Positions 51,241-58,046 of a DNA stretch of 64,000 bases are shown here, one piece after another. The translations under genes were made by a program, and so were the position numbers. Below the pieces are notes generated by a model. It ran no database searches and was not told where the DNA came from. It was given only the letters and a program-made list of their open reading frames with translations. Every line of letters begins with the position of its first letter. Positions within the stretch are counted from its first letter, which is position 1. This DNA is from an uncultured Chlamydiae bacterium (lineage in GTDB: Bacteria; Chlamydiota; Chlamydiia; Chlamydiales; SM23-39): NCBI GenBank assembly GCA_963730605.1, contig CAVSSM010000002.1, positions 1-64,000 of the forward strand, in the 5' to 3' direction.

Positions 51241-53247
51241 ATGGTAGTAGAAATAGGAAGCAGAGATAATCATAATCAAGGATATTTTGGATCAGTAGGC
51301 CGATTTGTTGCTGAGGTTAGCCAATGGGGGAGCTCAGCTCTCGCCGCCATCAGAGAGATCGGTTGTTTATGGGATTGCTGCTCAAGGACACCGACAGATG
51401 CCGATAACCCAAGAGCTCGTCTCATTACAGAGAACGTGGGCGGCAATAACAGCGACGCGACACCTAGCGTTGCACCAAATGCCAATAACCCAACACCTCC
51501 TCTCATTCCTGTCAATCAATTAAATACAGACTCCTTAGTCAATCCATTGGATGTGCACAATGAAGACCAAGAGGACTGCCTCGTTAATCCCGAGGACGAG
51601 GGCACTGAATCTGAATTCGATCAATTAGCAAATCTGCTGAATGTGCCCATTGAGTACCGAGAGAACTGCCATGACATTCTTCGGAATGTACCCGAAGAGG
51701 AGCTCCCTGGATTCGTTCAATCAGTAAATAATCTGAATATGGCTAATGAAGACCGAAGTCGCTGCCTTCTCACTCTTTGGTCCATATCTGGGATCGAGCG
51801 TCCTGGATTCGTTCAATTAGTAAATGCTCTGAATGTGGCTAATGAAGACCGATGGCACTGCCTTCTCACTCTTCGGTGCATACCCGAGATCGAGCGCCCT
51901 GAATGCGTTCGAATAGCAAATTTGCTAAATGTGCCTAATGAGCACCGAAAGGGCTGCCTTGCCGCTCTTTGTAGCGTACTCGCGACCGAGCGCGAGGAAT
52001 GCATGCAATTAGCAAATCAGCAGGAAATGCCCTATGAGAGCCGGAGCAACTTCCTCCGTTCCCATTGTGAGGAAATCCCCGAGCGACCTCCTACCTCTAC
52101 TACAGTAGATGAAGAACCGTTATTTGTCTTTGACGAGCCTGACCCTAATATCTTTGCCACTAATCACTATAACATTAATGACTTTGACCTTAATGACAAT
52201 CTCGCAGAACATTCAGCGTTTCAAGTGGCTTCCACTTCAATCACACAAAATCCAGTGGAGACCCTGCGTCTTCTCGCAGAGAAGATGCAAAATAGTAGAT
52301 CGCCACTCAAGACCAAGTATGAAGATTCGGACGCAATAGATGGCGGGGGAGTAAGTCGCGATTTTGTGACGAAGCTTCTCGATGCTCTCTTTAAGCCAGG
52401 CACATTCCCCACAACGGACCCAGACAATGGTCTTATTATTCCTAAATTTTCTGGAAAAATTCCAGAAAAGTGTTACCAGGGCCTCGGATTGATTTTCGCT
52501 GATGCATTAAATCAAGAAATCTGTACGGGATGTCGGTTTCATCCAACCTTATTTCAAATGCTGCATTCCTTAACTAACGAAGAAATTGATAAAGTTAATA
52601 CAGAGCACCAACAAGACCCTTATAACAAGATATTAAAAATATATCTTCAATCCCAACACCAGTATTCTTCGATCAATGAAGACGATCTAGATGCTTTTGT
52701 CAATAATGGCACAGTGCCGCCATACCTAAAATCAGGAGGGGTAGATAGCAAGGAAGACTTTTTAAAAGACACTGGCATCCATGAAATGATTATGTCAACG
52801 TTAATGATTGCGCAACACACAAAACAACGCCTTACATTGCGTAATCAATCATGGGATGCAGTCAAAGGAAACACTCCCAACGATTTGAGAGAAAAGATCG
52901 AAGGTAAGTTGACTAAAGCCGATGTGTTAACTGCCTTGGAAAGTAATGAATCAAATCAATCTCCCACTGTTAGCGATCAAAAAGATTGGCTTAAGGAGTG
53001 GATCAATGCAAGCAGTGCTAAGCAACTTGAGAATTTCATGTATGCTATCTCTGGATCGAAAGCCTTGCCATTAGGCCAAAAACTCCTCATTAAGGATGGT
53101 GGTCCGGTAGGTCGAGGTCGCCTCCCGAGCTTTCACACCTGTAGCTATGAGGTCAATATACCACACTATCCGGATTACAATACATTCAAGGACAAGTTCG
53201 AGATAAGCCTTGCAGATGCCGCACAAGGAGTGATGCAGCTCCGTTGA
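51241..53247 (+). CDS. HECT-type E3 ubiquitin ligase effector, copy 1
   Basis: DGGGVSRDF at the N-lobe start, FMYAISGS, LPSFHTCSYEVNIPHY...KDKF with the putative catalytic Cys at 53140, and 32-aa repeats upstream. Confidence 0.82.
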   Translation: MVVEIGSRDNHNQGYFGSVGRFVAEVSQWGSSALAAIREIGCLWDCCSRTPTDADNPRARLITENVGGNNSDATPSVAPNANNPTPPLIPVNQLNTDSLVNPLDVHNEDQEDCLVNPEDEGTESEFDQLANLLNVPIEYRENCHDILRNVPEEELPGFVQSVNNLNMANEDRSRCLLTLWSISGIERPGFVQLVNALNVANEDRWHCLLTLRCIPEIERPECVRIANLLNVPNEHRKGCLAALCSVLATEREECMQLANQQEMPYESRSNFLRSHCEEIPERPPTSTTVDEEPLFVFDEPDPNIFATNHYNINDFDLNDNLAEHSAFQVASTSITQNPVETLRLLAEKMQNSRSPLKTKYEDSDAIDGGGVSRDFVTKLLDALFKPGTFPTTDPDNGLIIPKFSGKIPEKCYQGLGLIFADALNQEICTGCRFHPTLFQMLHSLTNEEIDKVNTEHQQDPYNKILKIYLQSQHQYSSINEDDLDAFVNNGTVPPYLKSGGVDSKEDFLKDTGIHEMIMSTLMIAQHTKQRLTLRNQSWDAVKGNTPNDLREKIEGKLTKADVLTALESNESNQSPTVSDQKDWLKEWINASSAKQLENFMYAISGSKALPLGQKLLIKDGGPVGRGRLPSFHTCSYEVNIPHYPDYNTFKDKFEISLADAAQGVMQLR

Positions 53248-53382
53248 TTCAAACTGTACCGCGAGCAGGAAGCTTTTGTGAATTTTGGCTCTGAGAGCCA
53301 TAGCAAAATCGATCCGAACGAGGCTGCGCATACGCGAGAAAGTCCAGTTTTTTTGAAATTGTTCCAACTCGCGTTCCCTAAT

Positions 53383-53547
53383 CTCGACTTTGTACAATTT
53401 TGTGATGGCATCTCCGAGAGAATCGCTGGCCCTTTTTTCCTTTTTTTGCTCGTAAATAATGCCTTCGGCTATGAATTTCGCAAAAAAAGAAAAAAATTGC
53501 AGAGCGCTTCCTCTGGATCTGCTCGCCAAAAATTGCACAAAGTCGAG
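53383..53547. mobile_element. 165-bp MITE with 5-bp TSD
   Basis: IR CTCGACTTTGT(A/G)CAATTTT with CTAAT on both sides; the empty site is at 58167-58171. Confidence 0.88.
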
Positions 53548-55644: not shown

Positions 55645-55781
55645 TATATATGCTCTTAATTGTTCATTTTCAATATTATTTTAAATTTCTTTACTAAAAT
55701 CTTTATAAATTGTATAATTATATTTAAATATAAAAAAAATTATTTATATTTTTGTAACTAAAATTAAAAATTTGGGGATAT

Positions 55782-58046
55782 ATGGCAACAATAACAAGAG
55801 AAGACGGAAATAATTATAATCAAGGATATTTTGGATCAGTAGGCCGATTTGTTGCTGAGGTTAGCCAATGGGGGAGCTCAGCTCTCGCCGCCATCAGAGA
55901 GATCGGTTGTTTATGGGATTGCTGCTCAAGGACACCGACAGATGCCGATAATCCAAGAGCTCGTCTCATTACAGAGAACGTGGGCGGCAATAACAGCGAC
56001 GCGACACCTAGCGTTGCACCAAATGCCAATAACCCAATACCTCCTCTCATTCCTGTCAATCAATTGAATGTGCCCAATGAAAACCGAGCGGAGTGCCTTG
56101 ACATTCTTCAGAGTATCCCCGAGGACGAGCGCACTGAATTCGTTCAATTAGTAAATCAGCTGGATGTGCATGGGCACGGATTGGACTGCTATTTGCAACT
56201 TCAGCCCGTACCCGGACACGAGCGCGCTGAATTCGTTCGATTAGCAAATCTGGTGAAGGTGCCTAATGAGGGCCGATGCTGCTGCCTTTTCTCTCTTCGG
56301 TTCGTACGCAGCGATAAGCGCCTTGAATTCGTTCACTTAGCAAATCTTCTGGATGTGCCTAATGAGGACCGATGGCGCTGCCTTTCCACTCTTGAGAGCA
56401 TACCCGAGCACGAGCGTGCTGGATTCGTTGGATCAGCAAATCAGCTGAATGTGCCCAATGAGCACCGAAGGGACTGCCTTGGCATTCTTCAAGGCATACA
56501 CAAGGACCAGCGCGATGGATTCGTTGGATCAGCAAATCAGCTGAATGTGCCCAATGAGCACCGAAGGGACTGCCTTGGCATTCTTCAAGGCATACACAAG
56601 GACCAGCGCGATGATTTCGTTCAATTAGCAAATCAGCTGAATGTGCCCAATGAGCACCGAAGGGACTGCCTTGGCATTCTTCAAGACATACCCGAGAACG
56701 AGCGCGATGATTTCGTTCAATTAGCAAATCAGCTGAATGTGCCCAATGAGCACCGAAGGGACTGCCTTGGCATTCTTCAAGACATACCCGAGAACGAGCG
56801 CGATGATTTCGTTCAATTAGCAAATCAGCTGAATGTGCCCAATGAGCACCGAAGAGACCACCTTCGCGTTCTTCAAAACAGCACACCCGAGAACGAGCGC
56901 AATGCATACATTTTTGAGGAAAGCCTCGGGAGACACCCTGCCTCTACAGCAGATGAAGACATACCGTTATTTGATGCCATTAATGACTTTGACCTTAATG
57001 ACAATATCGTAGAACATCCAGCGTTTAAAGTGACTTCCACTTCAATCCCACAAGATCCAGTGGCTACCCTGTCTCTTCTTGCAGAGAAGATGCAAAATAG
57101 TGGATCGCCACTCAAGATCAAATACGAAGATTCGGTAGCAGTAGATAACGGGGGAATAAGTCGCGATTTTGTGACGAAGCTTCTCGATGCTCTCTTTAAG
57201 CCAGGCACATTCCCCACAACGGACCCAGACAATGGTCTTATTATTCCTAAATTTTCTGGAAAAATTCCAGAAAAATGTTACCAGGGCCTCGGATTGATTT
57301 TCGCTGATGCATTAAATCAAGAAATCTGTACGGGATGTCGGTTTCATCCAACCTTATTTCAAATGCTGCATTCCTTAACTAACGAAGAAATTGATAAAGT
57401 TAATACAGAGCACCAACAAGACCCTTATAACAAGATATTAAAAATATATCTTCAATCCCAACACCAGTATTCTTCGATCAATGAAAACGATCTAGATGCT
57501 TTTGTCAATAATGGCACAGTGCCGCCACACCTAGAATTAGGAGGGATAGATAGCAAGGAAGACTTTTTAAAAGACACTGGCATCCATGAAATGATTATGT
57601 CAACGTTAATGATTGCGCAACACACAAAACAACGCCTTACATTGCGTAATCAATCATGGGATGCAGTCAAAGGAAACACTCCCAACGATTTGAGAGAAAA
57701 GATCGAAGGTAGGTTGACTAAAGACGATATATTAAATGCCTTGCAAAATGATGAATCAAATCAATTTGTCGCTGTTAGCAATCAAAAAGGTTGGCTTGAG
57801 CATTGGATCCGTGCAAGCACTCCTGAGCAACTTGAGAATTTCATGTATGCTATCTCTGGATCGAAAGCCTTGCCGTTAGGCAAAACACTTCGCATTACGG
57901 ATGATAGTGATTTAAGTCACCTCCCGGTCTTTCACACCTGTAGCTATGAGGTCAATATACCACGCTATCAGGATTACAACACATTCAAGGACAAGTTCGA
58001 AAAAAGCCTTGAACATGCCACACAAGGAGTGATGCAGGTCTTATGA
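55782..58046 (+). CDS. HECT-type E3 ubiquitin ligase effector, copy 2
   Basis: DNGGISRDF and LPVFHTCSYEVNIPRY (Cys at 57939); about nine 32-aa repeats with a 96-bp period. Confidence 0.82.
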   Translation: MATITREDGNNYNQGYFGSVGRFVAEVSQWGSSALAAIREIGCLWDCCSRTPTDADNPRARLITENVGGNNSDATPSVAPNANNPIPPLIPVNQLNVPNENRAECLDILQSIPEDERTEFVQLVNQLDVHGHGLDCYLQLQPVPGHERAEFVRLANLVKVPNEGRCCCLFSLRFVRSDKRLEFVHLANLLDVPNEDRWRCLSTLESIPEHERAGFVGSANQLNVPNEHRRDCLGILQGIHKDQRDGFVGSANQLNVPNEHRRDCLGILQGIHKDQRDDFVQLANQLNVPNEHRRDCLGILQDIPENERDDFVQLANQLNVPNEHRRDCLGILQDIPENERDDFVQLANQLNVPNEHRRDHLRVLQNSTPENERNAYIFEESLGRHPASTADEDIPLFDAINDFDLNDNIVEHPAFKVTSTSIPQDPVATLSLLAEKMQNSGSPLKIKYEDSVAVDNGGISRDFVTKLLDALFKPGTFPTTDPDNGLIIPKFSGKIPEKCYQGLGLIFADALNQEICTGCRFHPTLFQMLHSLTNEEIDKVNTEHQQDPYNKILKIYLQSQHQYSSINENDLDAFVNNGTVPPHLELGGIDSKEDFLKDTGIHEMIMSTLMIAQHTKQRLTLRNQSWDAVKGNTPNDLREKIEGRLTKDDILNALQNDESNQFVAVSNQKGWLEHWIRASTPEQLENFMYAISGSKALPLGKTLRITDDSDLSHLPVFHTCSYEVNIPRYQDYNTFKDKFEKSLEHATQGVMQVL

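Follow-up and report, generated by a model that had tools for sequence, protein, structure and literature searches.

The window analysed here, a 64,000-nucleotide stretch of the genome of an uncultured Chlamydiae bacterium (contig CAVSSM010000002.1; genome denoted G000), carries two paralogous genes, H1 and H2, each encoding a leader, an array of 32-residue repeats, and a C-terminal domain that is homologous to eukaryotic HECT E3 ubiquitin ligases. A preliminary description made from the DNA letters had proposed two open reading frames (ORFs) of this layout, and both are present (Table 1). A third paralogue, H3, lies elsewhere in the genome (G000:C3:25512-27448), interrupted by a frame change where its repeats begin; its start is also called internally in a second assembly (P0004). 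H1 and H2 are the local representatives of a HECT family that extends across the phylum, which is a larger finding than the pair itself.

The HECT assignment is supported by sequence profiles and by predicted structure. The preliminary description had suggested a search with the Pfam HECT profile (PF00632), and both genes score above its cut-off of 23.9 (H1, E 2.3e-15, 57.5 bits; H2, E 8.4e-15, 55.6 bits). When the H2 sequence is compared with the Protein Data Bank (PDB), HECT ligases fill all 18 rows at E<=1, the best at 6e-4. A 39-row family profile reaches HUWE1 with an E of 4e-26 over nearly the whole profile length, including both lobes, and it also matches Tom1, AREL1, Rsp5, E6AP, and SMURF, with E values to 2e-12 among the best 60 of 83 rows. 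An AlphaFold2 model of the H2 HECT domain (per-residue confidence, pLDDT, 89.4; predicted template modelling score, pTM, 0.89) displays a predicted bilobal fold of N-lobe and C-lobe. Foldseek returns 106 matches to this model at E<=0.001, with HECTs alone among the matches listed. In a wide structure search of 48,161 representatives, all 19 chains with Z of at least 5 are eukaryotic HECTs (Z 21.3-10.5; the next match has Z 4.5), the best being UBR5 (Z 21.3, root-mean-square deviation (rmsd) 4.0, 305 residues aligned).

Conserved motifs lie where a HECT would carry them. DxGG is present as DGGG at residue 367 of H1 and as DNGG at residue 455 of H2, and an FHTC motif places its Cys (Cys634 in H1, Cys720 in H2) 35 residues from the C-terminal end. 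Of the 165 rows of a family alignment, some of them redundant, 164 retain the Cys, 152 the DxGG Asp, 147 the Thr, and 140 the His, and the Cys stands 30-46 residues before the end in 151 of 153 family proteins. The earlier attribution of the D.GG and HTC motifs to HECTs is borne out by the agreement of Pfam, family profile, and predicted-fold matches. The genes had also been set apart from the bacterial SopA/NleL and NEL types, a distinction that probably holds: true HECT homology argues against a SopA/NleL-type identity, and H1 and H2 have no match to Pfam SopA. SopA and NleL are also absent from the listed profile and structure matches, although a list of this kind does not exclude them.

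Relatives of H1 and H2 are widespread in the phylum. PF00632 matches 64 of 401 chlamydial genomes (49 of them above the cut-off) and none of 14 control genomes, and the family profile, which was built with the help of 26 of the genomes that it matches, detects the family in 92 of the 401, spread over 21 of 44 families. It matches none of the 30 genomes of family f4 and is silent in 86 of the 90 of family f9. The HECT family is present in four single-contig genomes. A phmmer search of 1.84 billion representatives yielded 487 matches at E<=0.001, 150 of which are listed; among the matches listed, 97 proteins are at least 560 residues long, and 77 of these match Pfam HECT at E<=5e-4. N-terminal modules are swapped within the family, comprising DUF4116 (15 of the 97), leucine-rich repeats (LRRs; 7 above the cut-off and 3 more weakly), or helical repeats without a name. 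Source names are 'Chlamydiales bacterium', 'Parachlamydiaceae bacterium', and 'Parachlamydiales bacterium'; an organism name stands on 4 of the 31 clusters examined, and the protein matches may include non-chlamydial members. Word-index protein searches, which are insensitive, gave 5 and 3 matches, and a plasmid search gave none.

Public annotation calls family proteins 'hypothetical' or names the LRRs alone. Automated Pfam tags already exist on some of these proteins, and domain tables may already list them. One close relative on a JGI contig (P0003), with ~7 repeats and a HECT, was misnamed 'diadenosine tetraphosphatase' by its source; the adjoining P0005 carries 2 repeats, and the hydrophobic leader of both proteins is of another kind.

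The family appears distinct from the eukaryotic HECTs sampled. A quick tree separates 29 chlamydial rows from 19 eukaryotic HECTs by a branch of ~2.4 changes (SH-aLRT 100); the tree has long branches and samples HUWE1, SMURF, and HERC types, with UBR5, TRIP12, E6AP, and viral HECTs left out. This topology is compatible with one old acquisition of a HECT by chlamydiae.

Table 1. Features of the HECT locus (window positions)
Feature	Position	Strand	Description
H1	51241..53247	+	668-aa protein: leader, ~5 helical repeats, C-terminal HECT (Cys634)
H1 upstream region	51131..51240	+	AT-rich; promoter-like TTTACT-17-TATAAT and ribosome-binding site; homologous to the upstream regions of H2, H3, and three non-HECT genes
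H1 leader (aa 1-102)	51241..51546	+	degenerate hydrophobic segment with WDCC, then N/P/T-rich linker
H1 repeat array (aa 103-260)	51547..52020	+	4 full 32-aa units and 1 degenerate
H1 HECT domain	52213..53244	+	catalytic Cys codon 53140-53142; C-end GVMQLR, Met at -4
H2	55782..58046	+	754-aa protein: leader, ~9 helical repeats, C-terminal HECT (Cys720)
H2 upstream region	55672..55781	+	homologous to H1 upstream region
H2 repeat array (aa 95-374)	56064..56903	+	96-bp units; two predicted helices each
H2 HECT domain	57000..58043	+	catalytic Cys codon 57939-57941; C-end GVMQVL, Met at -4
Second miniature element type, 176 bp	50822-50997		30 genome copies
Miniature element, 165 bp, palindromic	53383..53547	.	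24 genome copies
miaA duplicate, 5'-truncated	53548..54376	-	98.8% identical to intact copy; marks tandem duplication unit
137-bp repeated element	54368..54504	.	15 copies; sits where miaA copy breaks off
IS630-type insertion sequence (putative label)	54528..55648	+	DDE_3 transposase 54590-55633; 14 genome copies
Intact miaA (tRNA dimethylallyltransferase)	58167..59180	-	convergent with H2; anchors locus among bacterial core genes

The arrangement of the locus suggests how the pair arose. A block consisting of a HECT gene and the miaA 3' end has been duplicated in tandem, and the first miaA copy is cut by the 137-bp element and the IS630-type element, a putative label assigned from DDE_3 and HTH_33 matches and TA ends. 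Identity between the H1 and H2 copies is a mosaic along the block: 96-99% in the leader (99% over leader codons ~11-60), 71-84% in the repeats, 93-99% in the N-lobe core, 85-90% in the C-lobe, and 98-100% in the miaA tail. Downstream of miaA, relatives have in this slot a 405-aa gene of unknown kind (G241), a conserved gene of 539 aa (G197), or one of the outer-membrane type (G035), and two further loci end at a contig edge. Because the content of this slot differs, the HECT genes here are probably lineage-specific insertions. An insertion beside the miaA terminator was probably followed by tandem duplication together with the miaA 3' end, after which the repeats underwent unequal crossing-over and the copies were partly homogenised. 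In the same-genus genome G241, the 405-aa gene is convergent with miaA (L059:2578-3792), which hints at an insertion hot spot.

Pieces of H1 and H2 recur without any difference in soil-metagenome contigs from two studies, one of which may have supplied the assembly; letters specific to the truncated miaA copy are present in contigs of one study. The H2 array is spanned by no metagenome piece, and its exact copy number is that of this assembly alone. Elsewhere in the neighbourhood, three tandem genes for Legionella-MOMP-like outer membrane proteins (47188-50724) lie directly upstream of H1, and a tandem pair of LRR-protein genes (39934-41304 and 41823-43457, minus strand; 7 and 11 LRR_6 stretches) lies 8 kb upstream. 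Tandem ankyrin-repeat genes encoding C-terminal hydrophobic segments occur near H3 (L001:14251-17099, G000:C3). Three families of miniature elements are present in 30, 24, and 15 genome copies, and two of them are palindromic.

The repeat array differs in length between the paralogues, as first described (about 5 versus about 9 units). Tandem Repeats Finder detects a 96-bp period with 4.2 copies in H1 and 8.8 in H2; at the protein level these are 4 full units and 1 degenerate unit in H1 and ~8 units and 1 partial in H2. Across ten units compared, E6, R8, C11, L15, and N31 are invariant, and variation is greatest at positions 7, 9, 10, 13, 19-21, and 24. Towards the end of the H2 array, the units form a stepwise mosaic with differences of 0, 5, or 10 nt, a pattern that unequal crossing-over would produce. 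The helical nature proposed for the repeat agrees with a single-sequence structure prediction, which places two helices in each 32 residues (pLDDT 77, pTM 0.59). That the repeat is not LRR, ankyrin, or TPR also stands as far as Pfam recognises, with no match to LRR, ankyrin, TPR, PPR, or HEAT at E<=0.1 in H1 or H2. A search of NCBIfam gave no match to the repeat, Foldseek none to the repeat model at E<=0.001, and ESM Atlas none that was usable. The best structure match of the model is PUF (Z 10.6, rmsd 13), within the chance range for helical repeats, and PUF, MTERF, and designed-repeat matches were all rejected as generic.

The repeat had been taken as new, which is probably not so, and it is not confined to these genes. 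A profile of the H2 array matches 11 ORFs in 8 other genomes among 371, and 8 of the 11 are also matched by an independently seeded profile of a ~35-aa repeat. The latter marks 24 of 153 HECT relatives (3 of them its seeds), and reversed decoys score none. The ~35-aa repeat is used by many chlamydial proteins with differing C-terminal domains, the repeat-bearing ORFs ending in a HECT, in a second Cys domain (see below), or in unassigned domains. The 32-aa unit is probably a short variant of this ~35-aa chlamydial 'IP..ER' solenoid repeat, which has no existing name. Two results count against their identity: the 35-aa profile has no match in H1 or H2 at E<=1e-3, and the profile-profile match between the 32-aa and 35-aa repeats is modest (P 75%, 18 columns).

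The other end of the proteins is modular as well. A DNA profile of the promoter and leader of H1-H3 matches three other genes of this genome (E 4e-13 to 2e-10), and the coding part of the leader alone also matches those three (E 2e-5 to 8e-4; next match 0.04 or worse). None of the three, a tandem pair on contig C11 and a 240-aa gene on C1, encodes a HECT. The promoter-leader unit is reused on unrelated C-termini, a pattern akin to the 'terminal reassortment' of type III effectors. A sigma-70 scan of the upstream region finds 2 sites against a mean of 3.0 in shuffled sequences, so that upstream homology, and not the motif, is the evidence for a promoter. Related leaders are bilobed hydrophobic segments (KD40 about 1.4; KD19 1.8-2.0) and resemble those of inclusion-membrane Inc proteins. 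The H1/H2 segment carries charged substitutions, has a KD19 of 0.8, and ends in WDCC. The shared N-terminus (~90 aa) had been described as low-complexity; this applies to its second half, whereas the first ~50 residues are a degenerate relative of the hydrophobic leader on the three other genes.

The tandem pair on C11 (L002:4502-6040 and 6424-8265, minus strand) joins the same promoter and leader to ~35-aa repeats and a ~220-aa C-terminal domain with VH..RD and an invariant Cys in VCNxGK..RL..LQGRL. This second Cys domain occurs in 23 of the 401 genomes, joined to what appear by eye to be LRR-like, ankyrin-like, or helical repeats. It has no Pfam or PDB match and a sole ESM Atlas lead of 0.76, and a NEL-like reading of it was not supported; the domain is a candidate new Cys enzyme. 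The 240-aa gene (L003:4246-4968, G000:C1) has the same leader, an unrelated C-terminus with no Pfam match, and two insertion sequences directly after it. Two further proteins are of note. A helical-repeat protein (L072:1138-3228, G341) ends in His...Gln..Asn-Cys with no Pfam match, which by eye suggests a permuted papain-like protease or deubiquitinase, and a 766-aa protein (L004:4050-6350, G000:C1) has weak repeat similarity and C-terminal CQEQ and ATA repeats, again with no Pfam match.

A type III secretion system (T3SS) is the proposed route of export. In this genome sctR is whole, and sctV and sctN are spread over several frames (G000:C1, 340691-342626 and 581611-582859). sctV is whole in all four same-genus genomes, and the multi-frame genes likely reflect uncorrected assembly indels, because gyrA is equally fragmented (644178-646584). 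Delivery of H1 and H2 by a T3SS, like the T3SS character of their leader, is a proposal drawn from these sequence features.

Comparison of the paralogues suggests which parts are being kept. The ratio of nonsynonymous to synonymous substitution rates (dN/dS) lies between 0.97 and 1.11 for the N-lobe and between 1.5 and 2.1 for the C-lobe; no value exceeds 1 significantly, the p values for positive selection on the C-lobe being 0.13-0.37. In the repeats the ratio is 1.68 over all pairs of 10 non-independent units. Between H1 and H2, 37 of 111 C-lobe residues have changed, compared with 10 of 199 in the N-lobe core. Changes between paralogues avoid family-conserved sites (1/62 vs 52/276, p=2e-4; 3/62 vs 78/272, p=2e-5), and no stop has arisen over about 166 substitutions, against 5-7 expected (simulated P about 0.002). 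Both the avoidance of conserved sites and the stop-free divergence indicate that the enzyme core is kept while surfaces change.

H1 and H2 are HECT-homologous bacterial proteins and are probably type-III-secreted effectors that ubiquitinate host proteins. In the mechanism proposed, the leader would send them by way of the chlamydial T3SS to the host cytosol or the inclusion membrane, where the N-lobe would bind host E2~ubiquitin; a host E2 is proposed because none was found in the genomes searched. Ubiquitin would then pass to Cys634 or Cys720 as a thioester. The solenoid may select the substrate, with repeat number and positions 7, 9, 10, 13, 19-21, and 24 tuning the target range, and the faster-diverging C-lobe may change chain type. 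More tentatively, and with confidence somewhat short of even, the relatives of H1 and H2 could constitute the first large family of genuine active bacterial HECTs, acquired once long ago, in which promoter/leader, repeat, and catalytic domain are mixed and matched, C-lobes diversify chain type, and the VH..RD Cys domain is a second transthiolating class.

Several observations weigh against H1 and H2 as active, secreted ligases. H1-H3 carry Met at position -4, whereas Phe is usual there both in the family and in eukaryotic HECTs (of 151 family proteins, 100 have Phe, 12 Tyr, and 10, including H1-H3, Met), and a Phe near -4 in HECTs is needed for ubiquitin transfer to substrate. The model of the repeat comes from one sequence, with the middling scores given above, and protein binding by the repeat is a proposal. 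A dN/dS of about 1-2 leaves room for relaxed selection outside conserved sites, the H1/H2 leader lacks the hydrophobicity of its relatives, and H3, sctV, and sctN are split in this assembly. As to the host-E2 step, UQ_con was found in 0 of 400 genomes, but the control was also silent; likewise E2 (PF00179), NEL (PF14496), and ubiquitin were not found in this genome by searches whose controls were silent or below the cut-off.

Some of these observations would suit other explanations. Met at -4, together with a C-lobe that has diverged more between H1 and H2 than any other part, would be expected of secreted proteins that are catalytically weak or dead, acting as decoys or inhibitors that bind host E2~ubiquitin or a target, or that load ubiquitin without passing it on. 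This is unlikely given that the Cys, His-Thr, and DxGG are retained and conserved sites are protected, and Met at -4, found in 10 of 151 family members, looks like a tolerated variant. Less likely again is that the copies in this genome are recent duplicates drifting to loss amid abundant insertion sequences, with the family functional elsewhere. Such decay could leave a dN/dS near 1, a locus littered with a truncated miaA, IS630, and miniature elements, and a split H3 with an internal start in the second assembly; it would hardly leave so much divergence free of stops and clear of conserved sites, and H1 and H2 are full-length, with repeat changes in frame.

An active ligase might instead work mainly on the bacterium's own secreted proteins or on the inclusion membrane, as a meta-effector or by self-coating. 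The bilobed hydrophobic segments of the related leaders, with their Inc likeness, are consistent with this, and LubX and VirF are meta-effector precedents in the part of a recent review that was available (PMC13720258). The repeats, however, change fast in both number and sequence, which is better explained by an arms race with host targets. Self-targeting is slightly less probable than drift to loss. Most improbable is that the genes belong to a ubiquitin-like conjugation system inside the bacterium or are misbinned eukaryotic or viral DNA. The source is a metagenome assembly that is 83% complete, and giant viruses have structurally similar HECTs (8 matches in BFVD), but no UQ_con was seen in the 400 genomes and no ubiquitin in this one, with the uninformative controls already noted. 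Moreover, the genes lack introns, have miaA and further bacterial genes as neighbours, and carry a promoter that recurs on other genes of this genome, and HECTs occur in single-contig genomes and group together in the tree, apart from the eukaryotic HECTs. Contamination is largely refuted. With these alternatives weighed, host-directed ubiquitination by H1 and H2 is the preferred reading.

If it is right, a transthiolating class would join a chlamydial ubiquitin toolkit that so far consists of F-box, BTB, RING/U-box, and deubiquitinases, and the unnamed repeat family and Cys domain would gain a functional context. Work on how HECTs choose linkages would also gain hundreds of small, single-domain-driven HECTs whose C-lobes and tails vary naturally.

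The chlamydial F-box, BTB, and RING expansions (NEX1, PEX1; SneRING) and the NEL/IpaH ligases resemble H1 and H2 in their layout of repeat and ligase, their paralogue expansion, and, in chlamydiae, the targeting of host ubiquitination, but their catalytic domains differ from the HECT family. In the portions of these papers that were available, the word 'HECT' is absent from the main text of PMC4209131, the screen behind SneRING was limited to RING profiles (PMC12591485), and a canonical bacterial HECT is not reported in PMC4327156, PMC6557245, or PMC11354881. The literature covered, which excluded supplements and subscription papers, contained no description of chlamydial HECTs.

The bHECT ligases (SopA, NleL, VsHECT) share the proposed effector role, a substrate region built of repeats, and a bilobed Cys ligase at the C-terminus. 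They use beta-strand repeats, whereas the H1/H2 repeats are predicted to be all-helical, and they mimic HECTs 'without being related to them', according to the available text of a review of 29 October 2026. On bacterial counterparts to the eukaryotic HECTs, that text says that they 'have not yet been identified' (PMC13720258). HECT homologues in 16-23% of the sampled chlamydial genomes would, if true, overturn that statement. The nearest precedent, a partial one, is Legionella MavJ (Lpg2498), a single effector protein that HHpred aligns to E6AP and that is ubiquitinated in transfected cells (PMC5819833). As described in the accessible parts of two papers, which contain no Cys-dependent assay in vitro, MavJ is 'remotely similar' to E6AP (PMC5819833, PMC7542358).

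Giant viruses offer a parallel, in that the HECTs of Pithovirus, Fadolivirus, Tupanvirus, and mimivirus (R349) are also divergent HECTs in parasites of protists. BFVD gives eight structural matches at E<=0.001 (E 1e-8 to 3e-4), with 12-20% identity to the chlamydial HECT; sequence searches, pattern-based ones among them, found no viral relatives, but with a family this divergent they are too insensitive to be a sign of absence.

Closest in kind are the eukaryotic HECTs themselves (HUWE1/Tom1, E6AP, NEDD4/Rsp5/SMURF, UBR5), with which the chlamydial proteins share homology over both lobes, predicted fold, DxGG, an HTC Cys ~35 residues from the end, and the placement of the domain at the extreme C-terminus behind variable N-terminal modules. 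In contrast, the chlamydial family is bacterial and intron-free, is 12-20% identical to solved HECTs and about 2.4 changes per site from those sampled, and has DUF4116, LRR, or unnamed helical repeats as its N-terminal modules, with Met at -4 in H1-H3. In eukaryotic HECTs, linkage specificity is partly encoded at the end of the C-lobe, according to the part of PMC10274628 that was available.

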